A stretch of DNA of 17,055 nt from Promethearchaeota archaeon (GCA_019057795.1 JAHLWS010000029.1:1-17055); one strand, 5' to 3'; numbered from the stretch's first letter, positions 1-16,920 are shown. Made by a program: numbers and translations. Notes: generated by a model not told the origin, from the sequence alone.

Positions 1-156
1 AGTATTGGTATGAGTATTGCAATGAAGTATAAGGTTGAAAAGCTGTATTATCTTCAATTGTGGGGTCGAGAATATCAAAATCAACCATATATTAAGATTC
101 CTTTAACAAATCAGAAATTAATAAACATTATGGAGTTAACATTAAAACATGGATAG
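1..156 (+). CDS. 3' fragment of a probable stand-alone CARF-domain protein (5' end outside window)
   Basis: Frame 1 is open from base 1: SIGMSIAMKYKVEKLYYLQLWGREYQNQPYIKIPLTNQKLINIMELTLKHG*, TAG at 154-156, overlapping the ATG of the PIN gene by 8 nt. Small-residue helix followed by 'LYYL' strand and 'PYxxIP' resembles the C-terminal end of archaeal CARF proteins; the diagnostic DxTxGxK motif would lie upstream of the window. Confidence 0.55.
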   Translation, partial: SIGMSIAMKYKVEKLYYLQLWGREYQNQPYIKIPLTNQKLINIMELTLKHG

Positions 157-1213
157 TAAAATTTCAGAGTTTATTTTGAAGCTAGAAGAATTACCAATTT
201 TTTTAAATGTTCTATATTTAAAAGCTAACGAATGGTTTTATATTTACCCATATTTAATAGAGGAGAACACTTTCAGTGTCACTTTAGAAAAGAAAGTAAC
301 AATAACTCGGCTAATAAACAAACTTAGATATCAAGATATAATAACCGAAAAACAATTATCAGATTTTCCAAATATTGTGCCAAAATTTGAAGTTTTACGA
401 GGAATCTTAATTGCCTCTGGTTTCTTGAAGATGAAGAACTGGTCAACTATTCTGGAAGAATTAGGAAAAATTAAAAAAACCAATCCATTGAAAGGAGAAC
501 GACAGACTTTCATAGGGTTGGATACTAATTGTTTCATAGATAGAATTTATTCTGTATTAGAACATTCCTATAAAAAAGATATTTCAGATTTTTATTTCGT
601 ATTATCAAGAATAATTAGAAATGAATTAATGTCAATGAAAACCATATCTGGCAACCAATTAAACGATCTTAGAGATAGATATACGGAAAATCATGAGATT
701 ATTCAAGAATTTTGGAACGGAGACACTCTTTATACGCGAACTCGTCATCTTGGTTTAGTAGAATGTAATAAATTTAGAAAACAATCTAAATATTTAATTA
801 ATGATGGTCTAGACATAAATAAATCAAGAGAAATGGATTATCAAATAATTGAGGATTTTAGAAACCAAATATTAAAGCAAGGATATAATTTGCTCCTCTT
901 AAGTTCTGATAAGCAATTTGCTGACCAAGCACGACAACCAGGTATTAATAGCATATATCTTGAAAGGTTACCGCTGAAAGATATGCCAAGGCAATTCTCT
1001 GGAACTTGGCCCATGTTATGTGATTTTCTTTATCTTAATAGCGTATATTTTGGAGCAATACATCTTATTTGCAATAAACATAAAATAAAAATGTTTGGAA
1101 TATGGAGGGGCAAACAAGCAACAGAATGGGACTCTGAATCGGTTAAAATTTGGGTAGGAAGCGAAGATCTCTCAAATTTACTCGACCAACAACTAACTCT
1201 TGTAAGGACATGA
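149..1213 (+). CDS. PIN-domain ribonuclease with N- and C-terminal extensions, candidate type III effector
   Basis: 354 aa; PIN acidic motifs IGLDTNCF, SRIIRNEL, MDYQII, LLSSDKQFADQARQPGINSIYL; translationally coupled to the upstream CARF-like gene. Confidence 0.8.
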   Translation: MDSKISEFILKLEELPIFLNVLYLKANEWFYIYPYLIEENTFSVTLEKKVTITRLINKLRYQDIITEKQLSDFPNIVPKFEVLRGILIASGFLKMKNWSTILEELGKIKKTNPLKGERQTFIGLDTNCFIDRIYSVLEHSYKKDISDFYFVLSRIIRNELMSMKTISGNQLNDLRDRYTENHEIIQEFWNGDTLYTRTRHLGLVECNKFRKQSKYLINDGLDINKSREMDYQIIEDFRNQILKQGYNLLLLSSDKQFADQARQPGINSIYLERLPLKDMPRQFSGTWPMLCDFLYLNSVYFGAIHLICNKHKIKMFGIWRGKQATEWDSESVKIWVGSEDLSNLLDQQLTLVRT

Positions 1214-2206: not shown

Positions 2207-2224
2207 GATAATTTCACAACTCAA

Positions 2225-3052
2225 TTATTTAATAGAAATTATGGAGTTATATCCAAATCCTAAAGATGTGCGAACTCCAATACCCGTAAATTCTGATAAG
2301 TAAACAAGTTTCCACATTAGAGTTCTCTCAAACGAGTTCCCTACAATTTTAAATGTGATATTTCCTACTTGGCCTTCTAAAGTAATGACTTTATTTTTAT
2401 CAATCGTGTTTGATATATAACCTCGTCTTTTCTGAGTGTAGTCTTGAACGATTCTTAGATATGGATATAGTTCTTCTGCTTCCAAGTTTACTATCCCGAG
2501 TTGTTTAAACTTTTCACATTGGTAATTGAGAAATGTTTCGGCAGTAAATTTATCAAGAGTTCTTTTTCTGGCATTATAAAAAAATGTTGGCGTTTCTAAT
2601 TTTACTGTAATTGTATCAATAGATTGAGGGACTTTATTTAAATTTCCGTGTTCAAATTCCACCCTTTCAATTATGAGTTTTAAACTGCCAATTTCGAGAG
2701 ATTCTTTTTCATTCACATATATTTTTATAAGCTCATGAATGTCGGAGTCAATAGTTTTAATATTGATATATCCCCTTTGGCCTCGCCTAATATGTGTAAA
2801 ACCCCTTCTCTCGGATTCTGGCTGTTTAAAATAAAATCTTAAATAAGAAAATGACCATGGTTTAACAAGTGTCGATTTATGATATTGATACATAATTTTT
2901 GGGTTTACTTGTGATAGGAGATTATAGAACGTTCCTTGTACTTTTGAATGATTCGTTAAAGGAATATCTGCATCATTTTGTGTAATAAGAATGAGTTTGC
3001 AGTTAACTGGTGTTATTTTTTTTCTAAGCTTTGTTCTTGTTTCATAATCCAA
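2225..3052 (-). CDS. cas6: CRISPR pre-crRNA endoribonuclease Cas6
   Basis: C-terminal G-rich loop FTGIGVRTSLGFG, PWSFSYL motif and LETPTFF strand; located at the end of the cas operon. Confidence 0.92.
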   Translation of the reverse strand: MDYETRTKLRKKITPVNCKLILITQNDADIPLTNHSKVQGTFYNLLSQVNPKIMYQYHKSTLVKPWSFSYLRFYFKQPESERRGFTHIRRGQRGYINIKTIDSDIHELIKIYVNEKESLEIGSLKLIIERVEFEHGNLNKVPQSIDTITVKLETPTFFYNARKRTLDKFTAETFLNYQCEKFKQLGIVNLEAEELYPYLRIVQDYTQKRRGYISNTIDKNKVITLEGQVGNITFKIVGNSFERTLMWKLVYLSEFTGIGVRTSLGFGYNSIISIK

Positions 3053-3145
3053 TTTTTCATCACTCTATAATTATTATTTTTTTTGAATAAAAGTACGAAT
3101 TTTTTTACCTTTCATATTTCATTTTTTTCATGAACTAACAAATAT

Positions 3146-3961
3146 TCAATTATATTCAAAATTCAGTAAACCCCTTGTTAAGAGCGAACTAAAAAGTTGA
3201 ATCTCTTGTACATCCTTAGCTGTATATTTAAATTTAATTTTATTATTCATAAAATCAATAGTTAAAGAATTGGAATTAAAAATTTTTTCTTTAAAGATCA
3301 GTTCTGAATCTATATTAGTATCTTGTAATATGAATTTATAATTCTCAAATAAATTATTTGGATTAAAAATAAAATCAAAAGTTGTAGGTTTTATTAAGAC
3401 TGGGTTTTTTTCTAAATTTAATTTTGATGTGAATTTTGGAAACGTCTTATAATTAAATAAGGGATGAAACAAGTATAAAGTATACTTTAATTCCTTATTT
3501 TGAATGGTATCTATAAAATCTTTCTCATTAAAGTCAATAATTGAATTAAAATAATTTTGCCATAGAAAATTATTATGTGAAAGTATCTTCATTTGAGTAT
3601 TTGAGTAAGGTGTCTCAAAATGAAATCCTTTTATTTTTAAATTAAAAACATTTGATTCTAGTATGGATTGGATAATATTTTGGAGAAGTATTAATTTTGG
3701 AACCAATTCCACAGCGTCATTATATAGAACCCATAAGAAATGGATAAGTTTGAATCGTTTTGAGACAGAATAATAAGCTTTGATATTTTGCTGTAATATT
3801 GAACTAATTAAGCTACACGCAGAACCCTCTTTTACACATCTTAAACACGACTTAAAATTTGGGCATAAATTAATTGTTTTTAGCGAAGTTTCAAACTCTT
3901 TATTTAAAACCCTTAATATATGCTCAAGAAAATATTGATTAATGCTTTTCTCTTCAGTCAA
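3146..3961 (-). CDS. Uncharacterised protein with N-terminal C-x5-C-x2-C-x6-C cluster; possible degenerate Zn-finger Cas6-like RAMP
   Basis: 271 aa, in the operon orientation. ILRVLNKEFETSLKTINLCPNFKSCLRCVKEGSAC, FLWVLYNDAVELVPKLI and TLYLFHPL recall Zn-finger (DUF2276-type) Cas6 segments, but there is no G-rich loop. The ORF is likely real; the family call is tentative. Confidence 0.45.
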   Translation of the reverse strand: MTEEKSINQYFLEHILRVLNKEFETSLKTINLCPNFKSCLRCVKEGSACSLISSILQQNIKAYYSVSKRFKLIHFLWVLYNDAVELVPKLILLQNIIQSILESNVFNLKIKGFHFETPYSNTQMKILSHNNFLWQNYFNSIIDFNEKDFIDTIQNKELKYTLYLFHPLFNYKTFPKFTSKLNLEKNPVLIKPTTFDFIFNPNNLFENYKFILQDTNIDSELIFKEKIFNSNSLTIDFMNNKIKFKYTAKDVQEIQLFSSLLTRGLLNFEYN

Positions 3962-4040
3962 TATTTCATATGAGGTAATAAATTTTAAGAATTTTATTTA
4001 AACTCTCCTCAAAATTAAATATTATGATTAAAAAATATTT

Positions 4041-4817
4041 CTAGTTCAGCTTAAAATAATCCGTATAATTTTTAGCTTCCACATCATCAGGAAACAGAAA
4101 ATCTTCTTTAGATTTTAATTCTTTAACTGTGGTCTTCTCTAATACGAACCTACCCATTCCAGTAGACTTTTTGCCACCAAAAGAAACAAATCCTAAATTA
4201 ATCATGTGAAAAAGCGCTTGTAGTAATTCAAATTCTTTTTGTTTGGTCTCTTGTGTGATGTTATTTATAATTATTTTAAATTCGAATTTTACTCCTGGTT
4301 GTAGAGTCTCTATAAAAAATAATGACCCATCCCGAGAAACTTGCTTCTCTCGATCGATCGCTATCCCGGGCTTTAAACCCGAATGCAATTCTTTGATTGT
4401 ATCTTCTACTGGAAAAGCATCAGAAATTATTATATGAGATGCCAAATCATTCCCTCCGAAAATACTACATACTACACAAGGGTCTTTAAACACTTTTTTT
4501 TCTTGTTCTACTGTGCAATATTTCTTTGGATATTCTTCACATATGTACTCTTTTTTGCTTTGTTTATTACCTAAGGATTTAGCAAATGCTTCTACTGCTG
4601 AACGAAAATTTCCTTTTATAGTGCTACTAGGAATATACGGTAAATTTAATGAGGTTCGTAAAATGGCGCTTTCAGGTGAAAAATTAATGTCACTGCCCCC
4701 AATTCCAATATGCATTTGTGTTGTTAATTTAATAACACCTTCAATAATTATTCGGTTCTTAATAATTGCCAAATCAGCACTTGACACATCTTCAATTGAT
4801 TTGTATGTTTTACTCAT
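4041..4817 (-). CDS. cas7: Type III-D Cas7-group RAMP (Csm3/Csx7 family)
   Basis: MHIGIG, PYIPSSTIKGNFRS, CVVCSIFG, ISDA, GIAIDRE, GGKKSTGMG motifs; ATGA overlap with the csx10 stop. Confidence 0.92.
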   Translation of the reverse strand: MSKTYKSIEDVSSADLAIIKNRIIIEGVIKLTTQMHIGIGGSDINFSPESAILRTSLNLPYIPSSTIKGNFRSAVEAFAKSLGNKQSKKEYICEEYPKKYCTVEQEKKVFKDPCVVCSIFGGNDLASHIIISDAFPVEDTIKELHSGLKPGIAIDREKQVSRDGSLFFIETLQPGVKFEFKIIINNITQETKQKEFELLQALFHMINLGFVSFGGKKSTGMGRFVLEKTTVKELKSKEDFLFPDDVEAKNYTDYFKLN

Positions 4818-6028
4818 ATTTTTTTTATCTCCTCCGACATTGGAAAATAAATTAAATTATATCCTAACTCTGAATAGTGGTTTAATCCGACAAATTCCAT
4901 ATAAGCAAGGGCTTCAATTATAGTTTCGTCTAAATCTTGATTAATTTTAAATTTATATAAGGATCCTGGGACTGCAGCTGTTATATGTGGTTTTGGTTGT
5001 TGAGTTTTATAGCTCCATCCTCCAAGTAGTTCTACATCTCCTAACGATTCTTTTAATTGAAATCTATTTTCTAAATTTGAAAGTTTAAGATTCATTTTAG
5101 TATTGACATAGTTTAACGCAGAATTTAAATCGATTTCAGGATTTGATATGATATTTTCATTGAGTTTTTCTAAGGCAAAAATATGGGTTTTTGCAGCAAG
5201 AACAAGTGAGTTCAGTTGACTCATCTCATTTAGCGTTTTTTTATTTTTTTTTATTTTTTCATGAATATCAAGCGGTTTTAAATCTATTCGTACTTTTCCA
5301 AATCCTCGAGATTTAGCTCTCCCTAATCGCAGGAAATTAATATTATTTAAATTATTAAGAACAGGATCATTACGTTCGAATACCAGATAACTCTCAAAAA
5401 TTGAACCTCGTTGTATATACCTATAATTAAATAAATATCCGGTAAGACTACTGTTTTTTGCATAATTAATACTTGTAGAAGTTGTTAACCCTATTTCAGG
5501 ATTCTTTTTCATATAATTGCATGATTTGCAATAATTTCCTCCGACAAGATCCATTGTGGTTTTTCGCTTGCATACTGGATTTTGACAGGTAGCTCGTATA
5601 TAAGGTTCTTCTTCAATTAACCACTCTTTAAGGTAATTAACACATTTTTTATCAGATTCACATCTTTTACATTGTTTAATTAAAGGATGGGTTGGTACTA
5701 AATCAGGATTTTGGCATTCTTTTTCATCTCCTTCATTATTTTCATCTTTCAGAAAAAGCCCGTTAGAAAGAGTAAATACATTTTGATAAAAGAATTGATA
5801 AAATTGACACTCTTCTTTTTTAACACATATTTCACAGTGCCCCCATAGTTCGCTTGTATCTTCAATTTGACATAACTTTGGTAATAATTCTGTTGCAATT
5901 CCTCCCCTTAATGTGATAGAGGGTATATAATCTAAAGTTTTATATAAATTATGATCTGGTGCGGTAAAACCTACTAATAATGGTGCTTCGAGAATAATTT
6001 TTACTCTAAAAAAGTTTAACTCAGTCAT
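4814..6028 (-). CDS. csx10: Type III-D Cas5-group RAMP (Csx10-like), cysteine-rich
   Basis: LEAPLLVG, LDYIPSITLRGGIA, LGRAKSRGFG, GGWS..PKP..AAVPGSLY, SELGYN: the two-RRM Csx10 pattern. Confidence 0.82.
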   Translation of the reverse strand: MTELNFFRVKIILEAPLLVGFTAPDHNLYKTLDYIPSITLRGGIATELLPKLCQIEDTSELWGHCEICVKKEECQFYQFFYQNVFTLSNGLFLKDENNEGDEKECQNPDLVPTHPLIKQCKRCESDKKCVNYLKEWLIEEEPYIRATCQNPVCKRKTTMDLVGGNYCKSCNYMKKNPEIGLTTSTSINYAKNSSLTGYLFNYRYIQRGSIFESYLVFERNDPVLNNLNNINFLRLGRAKSRGFGKVRIDLKPLDIHEKIKKNKKTLNEMSQLNSLVLAAKTHIFALEKLNENIISNPEIDLNSALNYVNTKMNLKLSNLENRFQLKESLGDVELLGGWSYKTQQPKPHITAAVPGSLYKFKINQDLDETIIEALAYMEFVGLNHYSELGYNLIYFPMSEEIKKI

Positions 6029-6662
6029 TAAATCCCATCTTTTTTAATAATTTTAATATTATATCATTATCTTGGGAAAACCCTTCAACTTTATTTATTT
6101 CAATGTCAATTAGCCCATTACCATTTCCAAAACTGCAAAATTTTAAATTATTTAAGGCAAAAATGATCAATAACTCTTCATTCTGAGCTAATTTTTTAGC
6201 TTCAAAGAAGGATTTAAATGAGATATTAGGAGGGATCTGTTCTTTGATAAACAAGCTCCCTCTTTTTGCCTTTCCCGAATCTCTTTCGATACTTGTTTGA
6301 GTAAAATACTGCAAATCAATACGACCCTCAGAAGTAGGAAAAAAATCTTCACAAAATATTTTTGATGGTTTATTATTGGCACCAAAAACTTTACATATTA
6401 TACAACCCTTACAAGAACTTAATTTATCAGTATGTACAGATTTACAGTAGTGCTCATCACCTACGATAAAGTGTGCGATTTGAACAGCACTTGATCGTAA
6501 TAAACCTTTAAAAGTAGTTGCAGGAATGCAAATCCTTTCTTTGCGATTAAATTTACGTCTTAATTGAATAATATCTGCAGACTGGAGAAATTGATTCTTA
6601 CCAGCACCAATTGTTAAATGGGTTTTTGAAATTAAGTTAAGATTCATCTTTAAATTTATCAT
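6021..6662 (-). CDS. cas7: Short Cas7-group RAMP
   Basis: LTIGAG, IPATTFKGLLRS, CIICKVFG, SIERDSGKAKRGSLFIKE, FGNGNG; ATGA overlap with the cas10 stop. Confidence 0.88.
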   Translation of the reverse strand: MINLKMNLNLISKTHLTIGAGKNQFLQSADIIQLRRKFNRKERICIPATTFKGLLRSSAVQIAHFIVGDEHYCKSVHTDKLSSCKGCIICKVFGANNKPSKIFCEDFFPTSEGRIDLQYFTQTSIERDSGKAKRGSLFIKEQIPPNISFKSFFEAKKLAQNEELLIIFALNNLKFCSFGNGNGLIDIEINKVEGFSQDNDIILKLLKKMGFND

Positions 6663-9223
6663 AATAAGCCTCCTGATAAGAATTTTAATAATTCTAAAGA
6701 ATCAAAAAGTAAGAAATCCTCTTTCTTCCCCTCTAGAAAGGAACTACCAATTAAATTGAAAAGCTTAATATAGGATGTTTTTCCTAATAATTCTTTTTGC
6801 CTTCCTGTTTGGTATAACACAAATGAAAGAGCCATCTGCTTTTCCTTGGCAAAATTTTTCGGATTAAATGAGAAAAATGCAGAAACTCGTTTACTTCTAT
6901 TTCTTAAATCTTTTAAAACAGATGGTTTGGAATCATTTTTGTCGTAAACTAACTTAATCTCCTCATTTACAAAATGATACAAGCTATCATAATTCTCCTC
7001 TAAAGTGAATTTTAACTGGTAGTCTTTTCCAATAATGTTGTTTATTACATATTGAATATCTTCTACCTCTTGAATACTTATTCCATTTTGTACGCTAATT
7101 TTAAACGGGCGTCTTGAAAAAACTCTCCTTGGATCTTTAGAATCTTTATCTTTTTTTACAAAATTGGGAACAGTTAACCCAGAAGAAAAACTTTGAAAAT
7201 CGATAACTCCCATTTCGTTATCTTCGCATAGTCTCCCCTCCTTTTTCGCATTCTTTAATAACAATCTTGATGTAGTTATTGCTGACCAGATTGGAAATTT
7301 ATTGGGACAGAGAAAAATTCCGGTAGATAAGGTACATTTTGTTCCCATTTTTTTATAAAATTCCTTGGTTAAGGTGAGTGCGACAGGAATTGCTAAATAT
7401 GCGGGGAGTAGTAATAAGATGTCATCTCCTCCAGAATAAATTTTTCCGATATCAAAACGCGCATAATCAAATTCATGATTATAAATGCTTTTAATCTTAT
7501 TTTCTCCTATAATTGTCTCAAGGATTTCTCTAACTGAATTGGAGATTCTAGTTATTCGAGAATATAAATCTGAAAGGGAGATTGATTTAGCGATAAATTC
7601 AGCCATTAAATTTCCATCTGCATTTAATATTGCTAATTTGTGAGGTTTGGGTACGTTTTCCTTTGAAATATCCTCTAATCGGACTCCGGAAATAAATTCC
7701 ATAAGATTTTGAGAGATATCTTTATAAATATTTTTCCAAATACCTTCTTGAAGACTTAATTTACGAACATCAGGATCTGGTAATTTAAATTTGTATAAAC
7801 ATGGTTTACAATAATATTTTAACTCCGTATCAGAAAAGGGTATTATTTCTGTTGCGATTTTACTTCCACAAGAATCACATAACCTAGAACTTCCGAAGAG
7901 CACATTTTTTTTTTCTTTTTTACTTAAATCGTTCTTTTTTGCCCCTATTTTAATCGCTAGTTTTGAATATAAATCTCCAAACGAATCCTCAAATTTTTGT
8001 TCTTTTTCGTCCACCTCATCAAAGAAATAAATATAATCTGTGGTCATCCATAGTCCTTCGTGCATAGCTTCGTAGAATATTGATTCAATAATACTTGCGA
8101 TTTCTTGAACTTGGGATCCTGGACAAAACAAAATAATATTTCCTCCACTACTGTAGATTATTTGTTCAGGATATAACCTCTTATCTTTGATTAGTTTAGT
8201 AACTAACACGTTAGAAAGGACATGGTCGAGAAGTTTACTTGCATTTCTTAATTCTTCTAACTTATGAACATGGTCCGTATATTCATGTATGTGTCTAACA
8301 TCTCCACGTAGTAAGGCGATAGTTCCATTTTTCTTATAATTTAATTTTACGGGTGGTTGATTTAATAACGCTTTCTCATAACCGCTTACAAATTGTTGGG
8401 TTAGTCTTTTAATCTCGTGCTCGTTAGTTTCCCAGAAATCATTGTTATCAAAATTTTCAATTATATTTTTTTCATTAGACAAAATATTTTTAGTTAGTTT
8501 CAAAAGTTGCTCTGAGGCTAACGATAATCTGCTTCCAAACCTTACGTAACGCGAAAGATTAGAAGAATTGTCATCTTGAATTCCTCTAATTACATCAATT
8601 ATTGTATTAAAAATCTCTTCAGAAAATAAGTTAGTAAAGTGTTTTTCAAATAATTCAATACTGTGATCAATTGAATTAAAGCGGGATAAAGGTTTTCCTA
8701 TTGCGTGGAAAAATGAACTAGTCCTTACGCATTGCATTTGAAGTTCAGAAATGTTTTCTGAGTCTTTTTTTTGCTTCGCTATACATACAGCTAATGCTGA
8801 AGTTGCAATTAGATGGATTAATAAAGACGAGGTATTTAATCCTGGACGATCATCAGCTGGAAATGTATTATAAAATTTTTCAGATAGCGTAAAAAATGTC
8901 TCACATTCTGATTTAATGCTCTCGGAAAAATTGTTAAAATTGGTCTCTAACCAATTAATTACCATTTCATTCCAATATTGTGATAATCCTCCAAATGTAA
9001 GCAGCACGAATAAGTCGTTAGCTTTCTCTAACTGGTTTACATTTTTAATTCCACCTTCGAAGAACAAGAGGAAAATCCTATTTAAAATACTTAAATATTC
9101 ATCCACAAAACCTATATCATTAGTAATATCTCTAACATCTTCAAACTTACCGATATTGGCTTCTTCATAATAATTTGGAATTAAAAAGCCACGAATATAG
9201 CTTTTTCTTGGTTTGTTATTCAA
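6659..9223 (-). CDS. cas10: Cas10 (type III-D) with intact GGDD Palm2 and degenerate HD domain
   Basis: PADDRPGLNTSSLLIHL (Sulfolobales III-D-like), Palm1 GDVRHIHEY and YSSGGNI, Zn finger CDSC/CKPC, ADGNLM, and YSGGDD (GGDD at 7421-7432). The HD motif reads FFHAIGKP. Confidence 0.96.
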   Translation of the reverse strand: MNNKPRKSYIRGFLIPNYYEEANIGKFEDVRDITNDIGFVDEYLSILNRIFLLFFEGGIKNVNQLEKANDLFVLLTFGGLSQYWNEMVINWLETNFNNFSESIKSECETFFTLSEKFYNTFPADDRPGLNTSSLLIHLIATSALAVCIAKQKKDSENISELQMQCVRTSSFFHAIGKPLSRFNSIDHSIELFEKHFTNLFSEEIFNTIIDVIRGIQDDNSSNLSRYVRFGSRLSLASEQLLKLTKNILSNEKNIIENFDNNDFWETNEHEIKRLTQQFVSGYEKALLNQPPVKLNYKKNGTIALLRGDVRHIHEYTDHVHKLEELRNASKLLDHVLSNVLVTKLIKDKRLYPEQIIYSSGGNIILFCPGSQVQEIASIIESIFYEAMHEGLWMTTDYIYFFDEVDEKEQKFEDSFGDLYSKLAIKIGAKKNDLSKKEKKNVLFGSSRLCDSCGSKIATEIIPFSDTELKYYCKPCLYKFKLPDPDVRKLSLQEGIWKNIYKDISQNLMEFISGVRLEDISKENVPKPHKLAILNADGNLMAEFIAKSISLSDLYSRITRISNSVREILETIIGENKIKSIYNHEFDYARFDIGKIYSGGDDILLLLPAYLAIPVALTLTKEFYKKMGTKCTLSTGIFLCPNKFPIWSAITTSRLLLKNAKKEGRLCEDNEMGVIDFQSFSSGLTVPNFVKKDKDSKDPRRVFSRRPFKISVQNGISIQEVEDIQYVINNIIGKDYQLKFTLEENYDSLYHFVNEEIKLVYDKNDSKPSVLKDLRNRSKRVSAFFSFNPKNFAKEKQMALSFVLYQTGRQKELLGKTSYIKLFNLIGSSFLEGKKEDFLLFDSLELLKFLSGGLL

Positions 9224-9250
9224 AAATTTTCAACTCTAAATGCGATTGGT

Positions 9251-9562
9251 TTAAAATATTATAAATTCTGAACTCGAACTTAATTTATCGTGGAGATATA
9301 TTCTTGCTTTCCCCTTTATTTTATGTTGTATAATTAACGAATTACTTAATTTGTTAAATTCCCAAGAGAAATACTTTTCAGTACTATTAATAAAACAATA
9401 GCCGAATCTTGAACCTTTGATTAATTTTTTAAAATTGTCGTCTATTTGAGGTTGCTTTAAGTATGTTTCTGTTAAGTCGTCCTCTATCAAAATGATACTA
9501 ATACCTAAACTCGAAACCTGTTCAATTTTTTCTATTAAACTATTTATCCCATTAGTTTCCAC
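9251..9562 (-). CDS. Small hypothetical protein inside the effector operon (possible reduced Csx19-like subunit)
   Basis: 103 aa, GTG start preceded by AGGGGA; fills the gap between cas7 and cas10 with 20- and 27-nt spacers. No confident family. Confidence 0.6.
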   Translation of the reverse strand: METNGINSLIEKIEQVSSLGISIILIEDDLTETYLKQPQIDDNFKKLIKGSRFGYCFINSTEKYFSWEFNKLSNSLIIQHKIKGKARIYLHDKLSSSSEFIIF

Positions 9563-9582
9563 TTTTCATATCCCCTTATACC

Positions 9583-10521
9583 TTAAGTTGTAGGTTCATT
9601 AAAATTTCTTATAATACTGCTAAAATTCTTATTAATTCCCTCTTTTATACTACTAATAAACATACTAACATTGAGATCCTTCTCATTGAAACCAAGATTA
9701 TCATAAGTAAATTTCATTACTTTTTTAATGCCCAATTTTATTTTTCCGAATTGAATGATTTCTCCATTAGCATCCTTTTGTGGAGAAAATTTGTGCATGC
9801 CAACGCGCAACATCCCATCTTTATGAAGGTTCATTCCTATCATTAATAAAGCTAAATCTTCGGGAGTTCCATTATTCAAGTTGATGGTAAATGAAAATTG
9901 GCTGTCTGGGGGAACTACTCTCTTTCGGTCAGTATATTTCGCAACAATCTCTTTCCGTTCTAGTTGGATTTCATTTACAGGCATAGCATCTGAAAATATC
10001 ACCCGCGAAGCTGAATTCGTGTTTCCGAATAAATCACACACTTTGCATTGGTATTCTGGATATTTTCTCGTTTTCCAATCCCATTTGGTGTCTTCTTTAC
10101 CGCGTGCTTCGGGGAAGTTTGAGTAATTAAAAATATTCAAAAAATTACGGATTTCGTTAATGGGTTTTGGATTAGTTTGCTTAATGAAACAGGAATAGAT
10201 TTCACCGCGATCGTTTGCTTTAAACGAATGTTCTAGGAAAAACCTTATCATTCCTTTCAGGGTAGAACCCGGGATATACGCTTTTCCATCAAGTAAAATT
10301 GAAGAGGACAAAGGCTCTATATGGGTTTGAATTTTGGCAAGCTTTGAATCCAAATCTAGAAGATCCTCAAAATCTTTGTCCTCTATTTGAAAAATTTCGT
10401 CCTTGGAACTTCCAATAAACAGGTAATTATCCTCCATTACTCTAAGATTGACTTTAAATTGGTAAAACGGTTTTGAAAACAACTCCCTGCTACTATTTTT
10501 AATTTTTCTTAGTTTCAACAA
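9583..10521 (-). CDS. cas7: Cas7-group RAMP (Csm5-like capping subunit)
   Basis: YLFIGS, YIPGSTLKGMIR, CKVCDLFG, SRVIFSDA, RVGMHKF...FGKI. Confidence 0.85.
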   Translation of the reverse strand: MLKLRKIKNSSRELFSKPFYQFKVNLRVMEDNYLFIGSSKDEIFQIEDKDFEDLLDLDSKLAKIQTHIEPLSSSILLDGKAYIPGSTLKGMIRFFLEHSFKANDRGEIYSCFIKQTNPKPINEIRNFLNIFNYSNFPEARGKEDTKWDWKTRKYPEYQCKVCDLFGNTNSASRVIFSDAMPVNEIQLERKEIVAKYTDRKRVVPPDSQFSFTINLNNGTPEDLALLMIGMNLHKDGMLRVGMHKFSPQKDANGEIIQFGKIKLGIKKVMKFTYDNLGFNEKDLNVSMFISSIKEGINKNFSSIIRNFNEPTT

Positions 10522-11380
10522 ATTTACTCCATACCTCCATAAAGTTATTAATTAAAGCTTGACTAAACTCTTCTCGACTCTTTTGTTTCAATTCAGTTAA
10601 ATTAAATATTACGTCTCTATCAACTCCATTTCCGCCTGAGATACTACTGATTTTAAAAGTTTCTGATGGGTGATCAATTAACGATTTATAATCAATTACA
10701 TCAGAATCCTCAAGTTTTTTTACTTCAATTTTATCAATTAGTATTTTGACTTGTCCCAATCCTGCTCTTTTTTTCCCACCAATTAAAATTACATTCTTAT
10801 TTATTAAATAAATTACGTTGAACAGTAATCCTATCAAATAATTGGGAAGATTGTCAATTTTAATTTGAAAATTAAAGAAGGAACCCGGATTGATGTGTTC
10901 AACTGTAAAAATTCCCCCCCCCATAGTTGTCCCATCTATTCTATTTATTGCAATACCTGGGGCTGTGTCAAATTTAACCGCCGCTAAATCGATAGGTATA
11001 CAATCGTATAGAGTTACATTACTTGAATAGCTTAAACCCCCAAAAATTTTACAAGCTATACATAAATTGTTAATTTCATGCCTAATCTTTTCTACATTTT
11101 TATCTCTAGTTGCGTAAGATATTTCTTTACTAATTTCTGAGCACGAACTTCTTCTTGCTAACATACATGTATAAATTCCTAAAGATTTTAGTATAAATTC
11201 TATTGAAGATCGAAATATCCCTTTCAAAGAAGATCCTGGGATATAGGGAAGATCAATATTTCCCATTTTTATTCGAATTAAAACACTTTCTGATCCCTCA
11301 AAATTAGCTTCAGCATTACCGCTTCCCACATGAACCCTACCTATTGTTTCGAGTATCCCCGAGATTCTAACTGATCGCAT
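10499..11380 (-). CDS. cas7: Cas7-group RAMP (Csx7 family)
   Basis: VHVGSG, PYIPGSSLKGIFRS, CIACKIFG, GIAINR, IGGKKRAGLG; the true start may be an in-frame CTG at 11407. Confidence 0.92.
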   Translation of the reverse strand: MRSVRISGILETIGRVHVGSGNAEANFEGSESVLIRIKMGNIDLPYIPGSSLKGIFRSSIEFILKSLGIYTCMLARRSSCSEISKEISYATRDKNVEKIRHEINNLCIACKIFGGLSYSSNVTLYDCIPIDLAAVKFDTAPGIAINRIDGTTMGGGIFTVEHINPGSFFNFQIKIDNLPNYLIGLLFNVIYLINKNVILIGGKKRAGLGQVKILIDKIEVKKLEDSDVIDYKSLIDHPSETFKISSISGGNGVDRDVIFNLTELKQKSREEFSQALINNFMEVWSKFVETKKN

Positions 11381-11412
11381 GAATTCACTATGATCTAAAT
11401 AAGTCAGAGTTA

Positions 11413-12192
11413 TTAATCACCTAAAAATTTAAGTAGATCTATAGCTTGGATATTATAAAACTCGTGAAGGTCTTCAGGTCTTATCTCTATTATCTTCGCA
11501 TCTGCAATCTTAATGTTTCCTAAACCCGTAGATCTCTTTCCCCCTACATAAATCCATCCTTCTAGTAATTTTTTTAGGAGAAATTTAATCGCGCGCGTTA
11601 TTATATTGTCTTCTTTTAAATCGATATTAATAATTTGTAGCTCAAAGCTAAAAATTCCACCTGGTTGCAAGGACTCTACTGGGAAAACAGCGCCCCTTTG
11701 AGCCGCACCAGTTATACGATTTATCGCAACTCCTGGTTTATTTTTTATTCCTGGAAACTTATCCATGTCCAATATAGCATCTGACACAATTATATGCGAG
11801 CCTACTTGAGAATTACCAAATATCCGACAAGCTAAACATATATTTTCGATTTCTTTCGTGTTGCAACTATTTCTGTTTTCATAGACATAGCAAACATTCT
11901 GAAAATGCTCAGGTTTATAAGTTTTCTCTTGAATTTTTAAATATTTCTCAATTTCAGTTCTAAATATACCTTTTAAGCTAGATCCTGGGATATAAGGTAC
12001 ATCAGTATTTCCAATCTTTAACCGTATTAAAGGGTTATCAATTGAAAACTCTGCTTCTATCCCTCCTGCTCCAACATGTAATTGAGAAATGTTAATTATA
12101 TTTCCTTTAATAACATATCTACAATCAAATTGTGCAAAATTATCTGGTTTTTTTAATATATGATTATCATTATAATCTTCTGTTTTTTCCAT
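11413..12192 (-). CDS. cas7: Cas7-group RAMP (Csm3/Csx7 backbone, catalytic Asp retained)
   Basis: LHVGAG...IDNPLIR, PYIPGSSLKGIFR, CLACRIFG, VSDA, VGGKRSTGLG; GGTGAGG SD upstream. Confidence 0.93.
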   Translation of the reverse strand: MEKTEDYNDNHILKKPDNFAQFDCRYVIKGNIINISQLHVGAGGIEAEFSIDNPLIRLKIGNTDVPYIPGSSLKGIFRTEIEKYLKIQEKTYKPEHFQNVCYVYENRNSCNTKEIENICLACRIFGNSQVGSHIIVSDAILDMDKFPGIKNKPGVAINRITGAAQRGAVFPVESLQPGGIFSFELQIINIDLKEDNIITRAIKFLLKKLLEGWIYVGGKRSTGLGNIKIADAKIIEIRPEDLHEFYNIQAIDLLKFLGD

Positions 12193-12209
12193 TATAACCT
12201 CACCACGAT

Positions 12210-12644
12210 TTAATGTCGTTTTCTCTTTCTTAAAGCAGAACTTTGAAAACTACTAATTATTGATTTAAATGCGTTTTCAAGATTTATATCACCAAATAAA
12301 TTTATATTTTTAACAGCTTCAAAAAGCCACTTTAATAAGCCTAAATATTCTCGAACTTGCCGTTTTTTTTCGATATCTTGTATTTCTTTATTCCCTACTC
12401 TTTGCTCTAGCATAATATTTTTTAAAGTTTCAACGATAGTCGCAGTTGATGCGTTTTTAAAATATTTTCTTTCCCTCTGTTTCATAACAAACGCCATTAT
12501 AAGCATAATTGTGTTTTCGATATCTCTTTTTAAATTAGTGTTATAAATACCTAACAATTGATTCACTTGGTTATTTTTAACTCGATCTTGTTTACATAAG
12601 ATAGCTGCTAAACTTGCTCTGTTAAATATTTCTTTATACTCCAT
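12210..12644 (-). CDS. csm2: Small subunit Cas11 (Csm2-like, type III-D)
   Basis: 144 aa, predicted all-helical, with FVMKQRER and REYLGLLKWLFEA motifs; first effector gene, as in Sulfolobales III-D loci. Confidence 0.78.
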   Translation of the reverse strand: MEYKEIFNRASLAAILCKQDRVKNNQVNQLLGIYNTNLKRDIENTIMLIMAFVMKQRERKYFKNASTATIVETLKNIMLEQRVGNKEIQDIEKKRQVREYLGLLKWLFEAVKNINLFGDINLENAFKSIISSFQSSALRKRKRH

Positions 12645-12796
12645 TAAATTTCCTCTTTTTTTTTATTGGTAAATATCTATTGGATTTTATTATTTTTAAA
12701 TCTTTTATAAAAATGTCAAATCTAAGTAATTTTACAGTAACCATTCAATATAAATACATTTCTTCGATCATGTTAAAAGAAGAGCTACCATTACTG

Positions 12797-13003
12797 TTAA
12801 AACCCTCCCCCTTGTATTTTAATTATCATACCTTCTTCCCAGATATTATGTAATTCTTCAGATTTTATAGATACATCGTATATCTGACCGCATTCTAAAC
12901 AAATATCTTCTTCAATAAATTCAAGACAGTTAGGACACATAAAAAATTGCCCAAACTCTTTAGACTCGTACACAAAAACCGCTCTGGAATATAAAATTGT
13001 CAA
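12797..13003 (-). CDS. Small zinc-ribbon protein (CxxC-x8-CxxC)
   Basis: 68 aa, CPNC...CLECG; strong GAGGTGA SD upstream of the TTG start. Confidence 0.72.
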   Translation of the reverse strand: MTILYSRAVFVYESKEFGQFFMCPNCLEFIEEDICLECGQIYDVSIKSEELHNIWEEGMIIKIQGGGF

Positions 13004-13026
13004 TCTTGTTTTTTCACCTCTATTAA

Positions 13027-13203
13027 TTAACTAATTCTTATTTTTAACGAATATTTTGTCTGAAGCTTTTTTTTATTAACAGGATCGATACCACAACCCT
13101 CTGAAAGTTCCTGGTATATGCTTCTTTCCACCCATTTTTCAAATAATCTCTTTGCGTATATGCTGGATTTAGAACTGTCTTTCTGAATTTTTTTTTCGCT
13201 CAT
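13027..13203 (-). CDS. Small basic hypothetical protein, probably leaderless
   Basis: ATG at 13203 lies about 23 nt downstream of a TTTAAATA box (13233-13226), giving 58 aa; followed directly by the SD of the Zn-ribbon gene. Confidence 0.5.
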   Translation of the reverse strand: MSEKKIQKDSSKSSIYAKRLFEKWVERSIYQELSEGCGIDPVNKKKLQTKYSLKIRIS

Positions 13204-13225
13204 AAATAACAAATGATCATTCTCA

Positions 13226-13254
13226 TATTTAAATGTTTCTCACCTTGATATGAG
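13226..13254 (-). promoter_or_regulatory. Archaeal promoter (TTTAAATA) with adjacent CTCA-N8-TGAG operator A (13239-13254)
   Basis: Minus strand reads CTCAtatcaaggTGAG-aaaca-TTTAAATA. Confidence 0.72.
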
Positions 13255-13281
13255 TTTTTCCCCAAAATTACATTTCCATAG

Positions 13282-13297
13282 CTCAGTACTTTATGAG
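13282..13297. promoter_or_regulatory. Palindromic operator B, CTCA-N8-TGAG
   Basis: CTCAgtactttaTGAG. Confidence 0.68.
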
Positions 13298-13416: not shown

Positions 13417-13542
13417 AAGAAAAATAAATCGATTAAGGAATTTATGCAACAGAAACTATAAAATTGTGCCCAAAACCTCTCGTGGTACGAGCACTTAATA
13501 AGAGTAACATTTGTTCTCATCTCTATATTGTCATCAATAGAG

Positions 13543-14196
13543 TTAAATCCAAATTATTTTTCTCCCACTGAAATAACAACGCCTAAGGTTATATTCTGTG
13601 CTCAGATTTAAGAGAGCGATAGAAACCGGTTTTGTACCACCTGTTATTTCACAGACAATTTCGTAATTTTTGATCTCTTCTTTAAAAATCTTTTCTAACT
13701 CTTCATAAATTTGCTGATAATTTTCTCTTAGAACTTTTTGATAATCGAATTCTCTCACAACAATTTCTACTTCTTCGTATTTGCTTTTATCTAATTTACT
13801 AAACTCCTCGTGGTAATCTGGGCTTGTGAATAACACGTATTTTCTCGGGATGATACTAATCTCTTCAAAAGCTGCGAGAACGTCATTGAACAGCGTAGGA
13901 ATTCCTAACCCACCAATAAGGCAAATTGGAACAGTTTTTTTATAATAGTTCCTTAATGGCTGTCTTGCGATTGCATTTAACGTATAAGAACCTCTTTCCG
14001 TTTTTTCTAGCATACCATCTTTTACTAATCTTTTAAGATGATGATCCGCGCGTTTTGACATGTTTTTATTAATAAGATAGCTGCTAATTTCATTGAATTC
14101 GTAAATTTCTTTGCTATCGTCTTCAAGAAACATTAAAATAATTTTTTCTCTATTTTTATCCTCAAAACTTTTTTCAATTGTTCTTTTCTCTATCAT
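13543..14196 (-). CDS. wHTH-CARF transcriptional regulator (Csa3-like domains in reversed order)
   Basis: N-terminal winged helix (FNEISSYL...ADHHLKRLVKDGMLEKTERGSYTL); C-terminal CARF (CLIGGLG, KYVLFTS, CEITGGTKPVSIAL, RCYFS). Confidence 0.88.
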   Translation of the reverse strand: MIEKRTIEKSFEDKNREKIILMFLEDDSKEIYEFNEISSYLINKNMSKRADHHLKRLVKDGMLEKTERGSYTLNAIARQPLRNYYKKTVPICLIGGLGIPTLFNDVLAAFEEISIIPRKYVLFTSPDYHEEFSKLDKSKYEEVEIVVREFDYQKVLRENYQQIYEELEKIFKEEIKNYEIVCEITGGTKPVSIALLNLSTEYNLRRCYFSGRKIIWI

Positions 14197-14319
14197 TTTT
14201 AAAAGTTTTATATCAATTCATTTTAACATGTATAAATCTCATTATCTCATAATGGTCAAAAACCTTAAATAGTTTTATTTCGTAATTTATTAATCGCTTA
14301 AGAATTGCTAAAATATATA

Positions 14320-14337
14320 TCTCATACAATAATGAGA
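14320..14337. promoter_or_regulatory. Palindromic operator D, TCTCAT-N6-ATGAGA
   Basis: TCTCATacaataATGAGA; a minus-strand TTTAAATA lies at 14346-14339, immediately beside it. Confidence 0.7.
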
Positions 14338-14466
14338 CTATTTAAAGTTATGTAAAAAAAAACAAAAAAATTCAGTTAAATTGCATAACGAGTATATTTA
14401 TATGGCTTTATTACTTCAACTATTCTCCAAAAATCTAAAATAGTTGTTTAATCCAAAAATCTAGAA

Positions 14467-14495
14467 TCTCATCAATTTATGAGAAAGTTTAAATA
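14467..14495 (+). promoter_or_regulatory. Operator E (14467-14484) plus TATA box (14488-14495) of the crn2-cas2-cas1-cas4 operon
   Basis: TCTCATcaatttATGAGA-aag-TTTAAATA. Confidence 0.74.
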
Positions 14496-14577
14496 TCTTA
14501 ATTTTTATTATCATATTAAATACAATATTCTTTCTACTTGGAGGGTAAAAGATAAGAAATCATTCAAAACTTAGGAG

Positions 14578-14925
14578 ATGTTAATGACAGAACAAAAATC
14601 ACAAGTTCTTAAAATAGATTATATTTTGAACGCTCCAATCTTAACGAATTGGGGCGTATACAAGTATTTTTTATATTCTCATAAAACCAGCAACTTGGAA
14701 CTATCTAACGCAATTTCCGCCGTAGGACACGCTTCAACCGCAAAATTAATGTCGAAACTTTTAAATTATCCGATTAAAGTCAATAGAATTAAAATACAAA
14801 TGAAAGTTGGAGAAACTGCGTTAGTGTTTTCTCTTAAAGATAGACAACCAGAAGGTATCGTCTTGAGTTTGAAAGATATTAAAAAATTAAAATACAAATT
14901 AGGTATATTAAAAAGGGTTAAATAA
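14578..14925 (+). CDS. crn2: DUF1874 / AcrIII-1-family cA4 ring nuclease (Crn2)
   Basis: YILNAPIL, SAVGHASTA (catalytic GH), VNRI, RQPEG motifs; 115 aa; AGGAG SD favours the ATG at 14584. Confidence 0.92.
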   Translation: MLMTEQKSQVLKIDYILNAPILTNWGVYKYFLYSHKTSNLELSNAISAVGHASTAKLMSKLLNYPIKVNRIKIQMKVGETALVFSLKDRQPEGIVLSLKDIKKLKYKLGILKRVK

Positions 14926-15039
14926 ACATATTTTTTATTTGATGGAAGCACTTAAGAAAATCGTCCAACCACTTGAAATTAGAGTTTTGAATAATAACCC
15001 AAAAGACTTAATGTAAAATGGATTAGAAGGTGAAAAAGC

Positions 15040-15302
15040 ATATTTATTGTAGCTTATGATATTTCAGACAATAAAAGGTTGCGAGTAATTGCAAAGATTT
15101 GCGAAAATTATTTAATACGAGTACAAAAGTCTGTTTTTGAGGGAGAATTGAGTAAAAGTCAATTATACGCTCTGAAAAAAGATTTGAAAAAAGAAATAAA
15201 TAAAGAGGAAGACTTGTTATGGTTTATTTTATAAGGCGTACTTCAATAAGAAAAAAAATACAATTAGGGAGAAAAGTTGAAGATCCCTTTGTCATATTTT
15301 AA
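15040..15302 (+). pseudogene. cas2: cas2, frameshifted and with an ATA start (missed by the ORF track)
   Basis: AGGTGA SD at 15028-15033, then ATA-FIVAYDISDNKRLRVIAKICENYLIRVQKSVFEGEL...EED. That frame stops at 15232-15234; the Cas2-like tail VMVYFIRRTSIRKKIQLGRKVEDPFVIF* is in the -1 frame (15216-15302). One base is missing at about 15214-15215; the repaired length is 87 aa. Confidence 0.88.
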
Positions 15303-15343: not shown

Positions 15344-16363
15344 ATGAAAGAAATGTTATACATTATGAATTCTAATGTTGAACTCTTAAAATCTAAAAAT
15401 ATTATAAAATGCTTAAGACCAGATCCAGATGAGCCAGGTAAATTTAAATTGCAAATGATTCCAATCTCCCGATTGAATTCTATTGAAGTATATGGAAATG
15501 TTAAAATTTCAACTCCGCTGTTAAAATTATGTAATAAAGTCAAAATTCCATGCTATTTTAATACTTATTATGGTGTTCCGATAGGCAAATTTGTCCCTGA
15601 AAATTCGAGGTCAAGCGTAATTCGATTGAAGCAATATGAAACCTTTCTTAATACGCAAAAAAAATTACATATAGCAAAAGCGATTGTAAGTAAAGCGACT
15701 CAAGAACGAAATATTATTTTACTAAAATACGATAAGAACAAAACAATTAAGAAAAACATATCTAGAATAACTCAGTATGTAAAAAAAATAAGCGGAGTAA
15801 AAAGCGTCTCAGAACTTCGCGGAATCGAAGGGAATATTATGAAAAATTATTTCGAATGTTTTTCAAAATTACTTTATCATTTACCATTTAATGGAAGATC
15901 ACAACGTCCACCGAAAGATGAAGGGAATTCTATTTTAAGTTTCGGTAATGTTTTATTATATAACACTGTTCGCTCTGAAGTTTATAGATCCGCCCTTGAT
16001 CCATTGGTAGGGTTTCTACACGAACCCCATGAAAATAGAGCGTCTTTAGCACTTGATATAGCAGAAATATTTCGTCCAATAATCGTAGATAATTTGATAT
16101 TACATCTTGACCATAAAAAAAATCTTTTAACAAATCATTTTGATAGGGACGAAATGAAATGTTATTTGAACCAAAAAGGGAAAAAGATTTGGATAAAACA
16201 GTTTAAAGAGCGACTGCGATCATCTATAAGATATACGCCACTTAAGCGAAACATTGCAATTCAAGAAGAAATAAAACTTGAATGTTATAATCTTATAAAA
16301 TACATTTCAGGAGAAAAGAAAGAATATATTCCAATTAACTTCAATAATTATTTGAGGTATTAA
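15344..16363 (+). CDS. cas1: Cas1 integrase (I-B-like)
   Basis: LRGIEG, RSQRPPKD..NSILSFGN, GFLHEP, SLALDIAEIFRP; catalytic E/H/E present. Confidence 0.97.
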   Translation: MKEMLYIMNSNVELLKSKNIIKCLRPDPDEPGKFKLQMIPISRLNSIEVYGNVKISTPLLKLCNKVKIPCYFNTYYGVPIGKFVPENSRSSVIRLKQYETFLNTQKKLHIAKAIVSKATQERNIILLKYDKNKTIKKNISRITQYVKKISGVKSVSELRGIEGNIMKNYFECFSKLLYHLPFNGRSQRPPKDEGNSILSFGNVLLYNTVRSEVYRSALDPLVGFLHEPHENRASLALDIAEIFRPIIVDNLILHLDHKKNLLTNHFDRDEMKCYLNQKGKKIWIKQFKERLRSSIRYTPLKRNIAIQEEIKLECYNLIKYISGEKKEYIPINFNNYLRY

Positions 16364-16920
16364 TGATAATCATGTTTACACACCAATATATTGAACCACA
16401 CCAAGTAAATGCGTTTGCATATTGCAAAAGGAAATGGTACTATCAGAACAGGTTAAAATTACAAATTATTAACGATCACATGGAAATTGGGTCCTACATT
16501 AAAGAGCACCATTGGATGAAAACCATCAAACGAAAGGAAATCTATCTCATGTCTAATAAATGGAAATTAAAAGGAATGTGTGATTATATAATTGAAGAAA
16601 ATGGTTTCCAAATTCCTATAGAAATCAAAAAAGGCAAGTGTTCTGCTGTAAAACCCTACAAAAACGATGTAATGCAATTATTATGTTATGTGTTATTATT
16701 AGAAGAAAATTTAGGAATCAAATACACACATGGATATATTCTTTACGTAGGATCAAAACGGAAATTCACGGTAAATATCACACCTAACTTGAGAAAGAAA
16801 ATACAAAATTACTTCAAAGAGATTAAATCTTATTTACGGAACGGAAAAATGCCAGAACTTCAAAGCAACAAAATTTGTTGTGTAGGATGTTCTTTTGAAG
16901 AATATTGTTGGTTTGAATAA
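16363..16920 (+). CDS. cas4: Cas4 RecB-like nuclease
   Basis: YCKRKWY, GMCDY, PIEIKKG, QLLCY, C-terminal CxxCxxxxxC; TAATG coupling to cas1. Confidence 0.95.
   Translation: MIIMFTHQYIEPHQVNAFAYCKRKWYYQNRLKLQIINDHMEIGSYIKEHHWMKTIKRKEIYLMSNKWKLKGMCDYIIEENGFQIPIEIKKGKCSAVKPYKNDVMQLLCYVLLLEENLGIKYTHGYILYVGSKRKFTVNITPNLRKKIQNYFKEIKSYLRNGKMPELQSNKICCVGCSFEEYCWFE

Follow-up and report, generated by a model that had tools for sequence, protein, structure and literature searches.

A predicted cOA-sensing wHTH-CARF regulator and its operator-like elements in a type III-D-like CRISPR locus of an Asgard archaeon

A regulator gene beside a type III-D-like CRISPR operon of a Promethearchaeota archaeon encodes a protein, P0001, in which an N-terminal winged helix (wHTH) precedes a C-terminal CARF domain. 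P0001 belongs to the catalogued CARF_m5 family, its relatives are repeatedly linked to type III loci, and TGAGA-containing cis-elements are conserved upstream of its gene and of homologous genes. We consider it reasonably probable that P0001 is a transcription factor that regulates its own gene and senses cA4 made by Cas10, with cOA binding as a prediction of the structural and sequence comparisons described below. Features of the window, by which we mean the whole 17,055-nt stretch of DNA that was analyzed (GCA_019057795.1 JAHLWS010000029.1:1-17055), are collected in Table 1. To our knowledge, cOA-responsive transcription is the least studied signaling output of type III CRISPR systems, and Csa3 is its sole characterized case. 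A large census of type III effectors deliberately left regulators aside (PMC11229360).

Table 1. Features of the window and of one distant homologous locus (L024). Coordinates refer to the window unless L024 is named.
Feature	Coordinates	Strand	Basis or remark
wHTH-CARF regulator gene, P0001, CARF_m5 family	13543..14196	-	ORF call, 217 aa, ATG start
N-terminal wHTH, aa 1-88	13933..14196	-	VIA, Foldseek vs CadC, HlyU
C-terminal CARF domain, aa 89-217	13546..13932	-	Pfam CARF_Card1, domain model, structure matches
EITGGTK motif, aa 183-189	13630..13650	-	translation
Tandem element TGAGATAATGAGA, putative autoregulatory operator	14237..14249	-	53 nt upstream of regulator ATG
Palindrome O2, TCTCAT-N6-ATGAGA	14320..14337	.	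flanked by TATA-like TTTAAA boxes
Palindrome O3, TCTCAT-N6-ATGAGA	14467..14484	.	3 nt upstream of TTTAAATA box
Two further CTCA-N8-TGAG palindromes	13239-13254, 13282-13297	.	
Two small ORFs	12797-13212	-	behind 13239-13297 palindromes, ahead of III-D operon
Type III-D-like effector operon: cas6, several Csx7, Csx10-like, cas10	2225..12644	-	profile matches
cas10	6659-9223	-	within III-D-like operon; GGDD at aa 598
PHP-domain phosphoesterase gene	1319-2224	-	after cas6; best NCBIfam matches sub-threshold (RNase RNM, pAp phosphatase)
354-aa PIN protein	149..1213	+	PADLOC CARF_m1--CARF_PIN E 1.1e-33, profile 168-453 of 465
STIV B116-like / Crn2-Csx16-like predicted cA4 ring nuclease	14578..14925	+	divergent from regulator; Pfam PF08960, PADLOC
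cas2	15037-15234	+	TIGR01573 E 2.5e-13
cas1	15344-16363	+	Cas_Cas1 E 5e-79
cas4	16363-16920	+	Cas_Cas4 E 8e-26
L024 wHTH-CARF relative	4056-4757 (L024)	-	CARF_m5 E 2.7e-51
L024 actin gene, head-to-head with wHTH-CARF	5316-6470 (L024)	+	PF00022 E 5e-137

An initial annotation, made by reading the window, had proposed an N-terminal wHTH followed by a C-terminal CARF domain, and both folds were matched in structural comparisons. We built a full-length AF2 model of P0001 from 26 homologues (pLDDT 87.5, pTM 0.78). In VIA comparisons, residues 1-88 of this model resembled CadC (1u2w; Z 9.9, rmsd 2.8 over 79 residues) and HlyU (Z 9.6), with many further ArsR/MarR matches, and a Foldseek search with the full model also returned CadC and HlyU for this region. 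Sequence profiles matched the wHTH below threshold (Pfam HTH_5, E 0.21, for P0001; PadR in relatives). In the model, the N-terminus is a winged helix of the ArsR/SmtB/MarR/PadR type, and its putative recognition helix, at about residues 50-59, carries an R-x-D-x-H-L pattern that is conserved in a 26-sequence alignment.

For the C-terminal part, sequence searches with P0001 gave modest results. Pfam CARF_Card1 matched residues 155-208 at 25.1 bits (cut-off 24.6), the sole NCBIfam match of P0001 was TIGR02710, below threshold, and PDB sequence searches with P0001 or with the family profile returned nothing significant (best match, Cdn1, E 0.21). All Foldseek matches of the two-domain model had E > 1e-3, the top match being Crn1 Sso2081; a model of the CARF domain alone (C-terminal 132 residues, pLDDT 95.4) gave clear matches. 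When the CARF-only model was compared with 48,161 PDB representatives using VIA, ranks 1-22 were all CARF proteins (Z 13.9 to 8.9), including Can2 (7bdv, Z 13.9, rmsd 2.0 over 116 residues; 8bao, Z 13.8), VC1899 (13.8), Cdn1 (13.7), Card1 (13.1), Csa3 (11.8), and Crn1 (10.8), whereas unrelated Rossmann folds scored 8.9 or lower. In Foldseek, the top 39 PDB matches of the same model were likewise all CARF proteins. As modeled, the C-terminus is a CARF domain with a Rossmann-like alpha/beta fold; the doubt raised beforehand, that this domain might prove not to be CARF, is dispelled by the 22 CARF chains that outrank other folds. A homodimer co-fold prediction of P0001 gave a score of 0.00, which we count neither for nor against a dimer.

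The family motifs of the CARF domain are CLIGGLG, TSP, LRENY, (I/L)TGGTKP, and Y208. Conserved positions comprise C92, L93, G95, G96, T124, S125, P126, L156-Y160, E183, T185-K189, and Y208, and 26 sequences show no variation at T185, G186, T188, and K189 and almost none at G187. The intact EITGGTK motif noted in the initial annotation is indeed present, and a profile alignment sets its TGGTK opposite the VTGGTK of Cdn1. The cA4 contacts common to Can1 and Can2 are Ser19, Thr42, Lys99, and Tyr118 (PMC7969007). K189 and Y208 of P0001 are separated by 19 residues, the same spacing as Lys99 and Tyr118 of Can2, and T124/S125 follow strand 2. Judged by this spacing and by the aligned ranges, K189 is likely to be the equivalent of the cA4-phosphate-binding Lys99 of Can2, and three of the four Can1/Can2 contacts would be matched by the conserved T124/S125, K189, and Y208. 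The Ser19 position of Can2 corresponds to a Gly-rich loop, CLIGGLG after strand 1, that has no conserved Ser/Thr in the 26-sequence alignment; the missing Ser19 equivalent counts against a role for P0001 as a cA4 sensor.

The regulator gene lies where the initial annotation placed it, with the III-D-like operon on one side and a B116/Crn2-like gene followed by cas2-cas1-cas4 on the other. Within the operon, three Csx7 proteins scored above cut-off and Csx10 matched with E 2e-15; the Cas10 of the locus is the presumed source of the cOA signal. The protein encoded divergently from the regulator matched Pfam PF08960 (E 7.9e-21) and PADLOC 'Csx16' (E 4.4e-20), so that at similar E-values one resource labels it STIV_B116-like (Crn2/AcrIII-1) and the other Csx16. 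It carries a VGHAST histidine, and the catalytic residue of the B116/AcrIII-1 family is His-47 (bioRxiv 10.1101/778746). A Shine-Dalgarno-like AGGAG suits the second ATG of this gene, at 14584, better than the first, and the second is possibly the real start.

Several other genes of the locus bear on cOA signaling or on its annotation. The PIN protein matches the CARF_m1 profile in its PIN half only and is a candidate cOA-dependent RNase effector of the locus; in two homologous loci, L002 and L004, a 168-aa CARF gene lies directly upstream of a 283-355-aa gene, which suggests a split two-gene CARF + PIN effector. In two other Asgard loci, a PHP gene also occurs directly upstream of a CARF-only CARF_m5 paralogue (L008, 8892-9191; L009, 6198-7169), and the repeated association raises the possibility that PHP and CARF together process cOA or the linear products derived from it. 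One of the two small ORFs ahead of the III-D operon encodes a basic protein of ~58-61 aa and the other a 68-aa protein with a zinc-ribbon-like CxxC...CxxC pattern; neither matched a family. The cas2 frame contains no ATG, GTG, or TTG start and is preceded by an in-frame TGA, and just upstream of it a GTG in another frame stands beside an A-run; a frameshift in a homopolymer, a fault of the assembly, or use of a non-canonical start might explain this anomaly. A search of the window for a CRISPR array found none.

A role as a DNA-binding regulator, also part of the initial annotation, draws support from an operator-like element conserved in the regulator's own promoter at independent loci. The TGAGATAATGAGA element of the window lies ~12 nt downstream of a TATA-like box (~14262-14271). 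Its general form, TGAGAT-WW-TGAGA, occurs 53-146 nt upstream of the start in six independent loci (the window, L001, L002, L004, L006, and L007; proteins 46-79% identical to P0001), always on the strand of the gene and ~10-16 nt downstream of a TATA-like box. Matches to the 13-mer with at most one mismatch numbered 12 in 154 kb of loci, compared with 1.9 expected. L016, which was not used for motif discovery, has a one-mismatch tandem element at about -85, and the element is preserved in a variant locus on contig C3 (see below); no recognizable tandem site was found upstream of the most diverged homologue tested (L023, 40% identity). By its position, the tandem element probably overlaps the transcription start and lies within the transcribed leader. 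The transcription start is a classic place for an archaeal repressor to bind, and this probable position makes autorepression the likeliest reading of the element. Direct-repeat operators are unusual for a symmetric dimer, and for this reason we count the tandem arrangement against an operator function for a dimeric P0001.

TGAGA half-sites also form palindromes. O3, which the variant locus retains, is 94 nt upstream of the start of the ring-nuclease gene and is abutted by a 16-nt direct repeat (TCCAAAAATCTAAAAT / TCCAAAAATCTAGAAT, at 14426-14441 and 14452-14467). On the minus strand, the pair at 13239-13297 precedes a TATA-like box and the two small ORFs ahead of the III-D operon. Two perfect 18-mer palindromes were present in the window, compared with 0.09 expected, and four CTCA-N8-TGAG sites, compared with 0.15 expected, a number reached in none of 200 shuffles. 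The initial annotation had called for a survey of the wHTH-CARF architecture and its linkage to the palindrome; across all loci, we found 12 CTCA-N8-TGAG palindromes where 1.27 were expected, and in L008 and L009 two of them stand ~45 nt upstream of family members. The B116-like gene of L007 is not preceded by a site, so control of the ring nuclease is supported in the lineage of the window alone. No TGAGA site occurs in the ~150 nt that immediately precede the first III-D gene (12645-12796), which makes direct control of the effector operon uncertain. From the co-occurrence of gene and elements, and from the conserved R-x-D-x-H-L helix, we infer that P0001 binds the TGAGA elements.

Linkage of the regulator to type III loci is recurrent. 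L002 and L004 have the same III-D-like gene order as the window, and in L006 and L016 the regulator homologue is divergent from a cas10 gene. In L007, a CARF-only paralogue lies next to the homologue, together with a B116-like gene and RT-cas2-cas1-cas4. Among public homologues with long sequence context, the closest (L001, 79% identity) lacks cas genes in the 10 kb upstream and in the ~4 kb of sequence available downstream. The same MAG (G000) contains a second version of the locus on contigs C83 (L013) and C3 (L014), the flanks of which are 93-96% identical to positions 1-1236 and 13540-14934 of the window. Its effector module, also type III, is entirely different: the RAMPs are fused (691 aa with a cold-shock domain, 460 aa, and 753 aa), Cas10 is a minimal form of 540 aa, and cas6 and a gene for a 225-aa CARF1-type protein are also present. 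This second version keeps the regulator, all three intergenic operator-like sites, and part of the ring-nuclease gene, and it represents either an in-situ exchange of effector modules between strains or a duplicated locus.

In the mechanism we propose, the ArsR/PadR-like winged helix would bind TGAGA-containing operators, namely the tandem site over the regulator's own probable transcription start and the TATA-abutting CTCA-N8-TGAG sites before the Crn2/Csx16-like gene and before the two small ORFs upstream of III-D. The Can2/Card1-like CARF domain would most likely dimerize, and the CARF dimer would most likely bind cyclic tetra-adenylate (cA4) from the Cas10 of the locus. Ligand binding would change affinity for DNA, causing either release or strengthening, and detection of invader RNA would then retune expression of the regulator, the ring nuclease, and perhaps neighboring cas genes.

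Multiple observations favor this mechanism. First, both folds were confirmed and P0001 matches CARF_m5 over its full length. Second, the tandem element is conserved across loci and the recognition helix is conserved in parallel. Third, palindromes occur in excess, type III linkage recurs, and the regulator and operator-like sites were kept in the variant locus. Fourth, three of the four cA4 contacts of Can1 and Can2 appear to be conserved. Fifth, the locus contains both a source of the signal (Cas10 with GGDD) and a consumer (the Crn2/Csx16-like gene). Finally, Csa3 provides a precedent, as it binds cA4 without cleavage and regulates cas genes (PMC8699464, PMC8844856). We favor cA4 as the ligand because the nearest CARF clade binds cA4, because the adjacent ring-nuclease family is cA4-specific, because CARFs of the Can2 type leave the ligand uncleaved and typically rely on Crn2, a frequent neighbor of can2 (PMC7969007), and because type III loci in archaea reportedly have no cA3 or cA6 effectors (PMC11229360).

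The family to which P0001 belongs is broader than its CRISPR-linked members. The PADLOC profile PDLC01987, 'CARF_m5--CARF', matched residues 24-217 with E 3.7e-41 (139 bits; profile positions 18-195 of 195), and the next best PADLOC profile was CARF4 (Can2/Card1; E 1.3e-9). Because a CARF-only paralogue matched positions 74-195 alone, the CARF_m5 profile includes the wHTH, although its label says only 'CARF'. We take CARF_m5 to be a minor clade of the Makarova et al. 2020 CARF census, as carried in PADLOC-DB. A literature search that covered work other than this census found no paper naming CARF_m5 and nothing on an HTH-CARF architecture or a C-terminal CARF with an HTH, and the 2025 Crf nomenclature table has no family with an N-terminal HTH.

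Word-indexed and exhaustive homologue searches point to a small family: they returned 41 clusters among 5.8 billion proteins and 28 representatives at E <= 1e-3 among 1.84 billion proteins, and all named sources were Asgard MAGs (Lokiarchaeia, Promethearchaeota, or Hodarchaeota). The family has two forms, wHTH+CARF proteins of 207-225 aa and CARF-only proteins of 135-146 aa, the latter being paralogues at ~50% identity. We considered whether the CARF-only forms might be fragments produced by miscalling and discarded this possibility, since each is a gene in its own right, with upstream genes of its own. One distant match, P0062 (507 aa), is about twice the usual length, matches the query in two stretches, and may be a tandem, single-chain (wHTH-CARF)2 form. 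Of 400 Asgard genomes surveyed, which span many lineages, 60 had a match at E <= 1e-5 and only about nine had a close match (E < 1e-50). These relatives, together with the full-length match to a catalogued profile, show that a singular inverted architecture would be an overstatement: by these sequence comparisons, CARF_m5 was already known as a clade and the wHTH-CARF order is not unique to P0001. The present analysis adds confirmation at the level of the fold, a CRISPR-linked sub-branch with TGGTK, a putative operator, and, in this lineage, wiring to a ring-nuclease gene.

One of the weaker matches of this survey, a 233-aa protein with a PadR-like wHTH and a CARF_m5 domain, is encoded in a complete genome from another Asgard family (G117:C1, L024) head-to-head with actin; TDGTR replaces TGGTK in this protein, and LRENY is lost. 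Because its site motifs are altered, P0001 is best placed, on sequence grounds, in a CRISPR-linked CARF_m5 sub-branch that keeps the Can2-like lysine. The occurrence of CARF_m5 away from CRISPR genes, beside actin and in the cas-free L001, means that the family as a whole need not respond to a ligand made by Cas10. The same facts, with the absence of a Ser19 equivalent from the strand-1 loop, are what would be expected if P0001 were a transcription factor acting on the same operators through a CARF-like domain that serves as a dimerization module or senses some other small molecule. This alternative seems improbable to us, as the CRISPR-linked subfamily keeps TGGTK and Y208 at a Can2-like spacing and repeatedly adjoins cyclase-competent type III operons and a cA4 ring-nuclease gene.

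A second alternative, less likely, is that P0001 is chiefly a Crn1-like CARF ring nuclease or combines regulation with cA4 degradation, in which case the CARF-only proteins would be stand-alone ring nucleases; the idea applies particularly to these paralogues. It is encouraged by the Foldseek search, since Crn1 Sso2081, the top match of the full model, is also a small CARF ring nuclease that bears a wHTH, and by conservation of the motif-II lysine. The domain order of Crn1 is opposite to that of P0001, however. Ring-nuclease CARFs such as Crn1 use a Ser/Thr after strand 1, whereas P0001 and its family have no conserved Ser/Thr there and do have conserved operator-like sites, which argue for DNA binding. 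Stand-alone CARF paralogues exist, and most small CARF proteins of this stand-alone kind are ring nucleases, but a dedicated Crn2/Csx16-like gene is adjacent to the regulator and two ring nucleases in one locus are rare, ~4% (PMC12409355). The nearest clade, Can1/Can2, moreover lacks ring-nuclease activity, which is outsourced to Crn2 (PMC7969007). For P0001 itself, we regard a ring-nuclease or dual role as distinctly unlikely.

The notion that the TGAGA elements are sites for another factor or RNA elements of the 5' UTR, with P0001 a cOA buffer that retains a vestigial wHTH, gains something from the probable location of the tandem element inside the transcribed leader but is very hard to reconcile with symmetric palindromes of the same half-site at non-transcribed, TATA-abutting promoter positions, with an element that travels with the gene across loci with otherwise unrelated flanks, and with a strongly conserved recognition helix.

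If P0001 is a cA4-sensing regulator, then its relationship to known systems deserves comment. Csa3 acts at palindromic promoter sites. Like P0001, Csa3a and Csa3b (Sulfolobales; PDB 2wte, 6wxq) are transcription factors that combine CARF and wHTH domains and are encoded beside cas genes. In Csa3, however, the CARF domain is N-terminal and the wHTH is C-terminal, and the Csa3 locus is of type I-A in Sulfolobales, whereas that of P0001 is of type III-D in an Asgard archaeon. The CARF domain of P0001 is also nearer to Can2/Card1 (Z 13.9; CARF4 E 1.3e-9) than to Csa3 (Z 11.8), P0001 was not matched by Pfam Csa3_N, and the PADLOC Csa3 profile is absent from the best 25 of 40 families listed for P0001. 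The initial annotation had suggested a regulator that was independently assembled or permuted. A separate fusion is modestly favored over a permuted Csa3, given the stand-alone CARF paralogues and a CARF domain that is closer to CARF4 than to that of Csa3; the preference is no more than modest, as the PADLOC Csa3 profile weakly matches the N-terminal part of two relatives (E 7e-4 to 1.4e-3).

The CARF structures nearest to that modeled for P0001 are those of Can2, Card1, and VC1899 (CARF4, Crf4; Z 13.9-13.1, rmsd 2.0-2.6), which also have TGGTK and the same distance between the Lys and Tyr of the cA4 contacts. Can2 and Card1 have a C-terminal PD-(D/E)xK nuclease, whereas P0001 has none, its output domain being the N-terminal wHTH, and lacks the Ser19 equivalent. 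Regulators of the wHTH-WYL class (BrxR, DriD, and CapW-type) resemble P0001 in placing a wHTH before a ligand sensor and in regulating defense genes (PMC4012209), but their sensor is an Sm-like WYL barrel unrelated to the Rossmann-like CARF domain.

A more specific scenario, which we offer tentatively, is a feedback loop in which cA4-switched P0001 acts at the TATA-abutting palindromes, so that a dangerous ring nuclease would be made only after the alarm and would serve as a timed off-switch; cas2-cas1-cas4 and the small ORFs upstream of III-D might be switched along with it. Such a loop would be the 'tight transcriptional control' that the authors of the AcrIII-1 study proposed for a domesticated anti-CRISPR (bioRxiv 10.1101/778746). 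If true, it would tie the acquisition of spacers in an Asgard archaeon to detection at the level of RNA.

The locus is a compact and testable system that comprises a 217-aa sensor-regulator, named putative operators, a cyclase-competent Cas10, and a ring-nuclease gene that follows one of these operators. P0001 anchors the CRISPR-linked branch of an Asgard-wide CARF_m5 family whose members in other lineages are actin-adjacent, and knowledge of its ligand and of the coupling within a wHTH-CARF dimer, once learned, would inform all CARF_m5 members.
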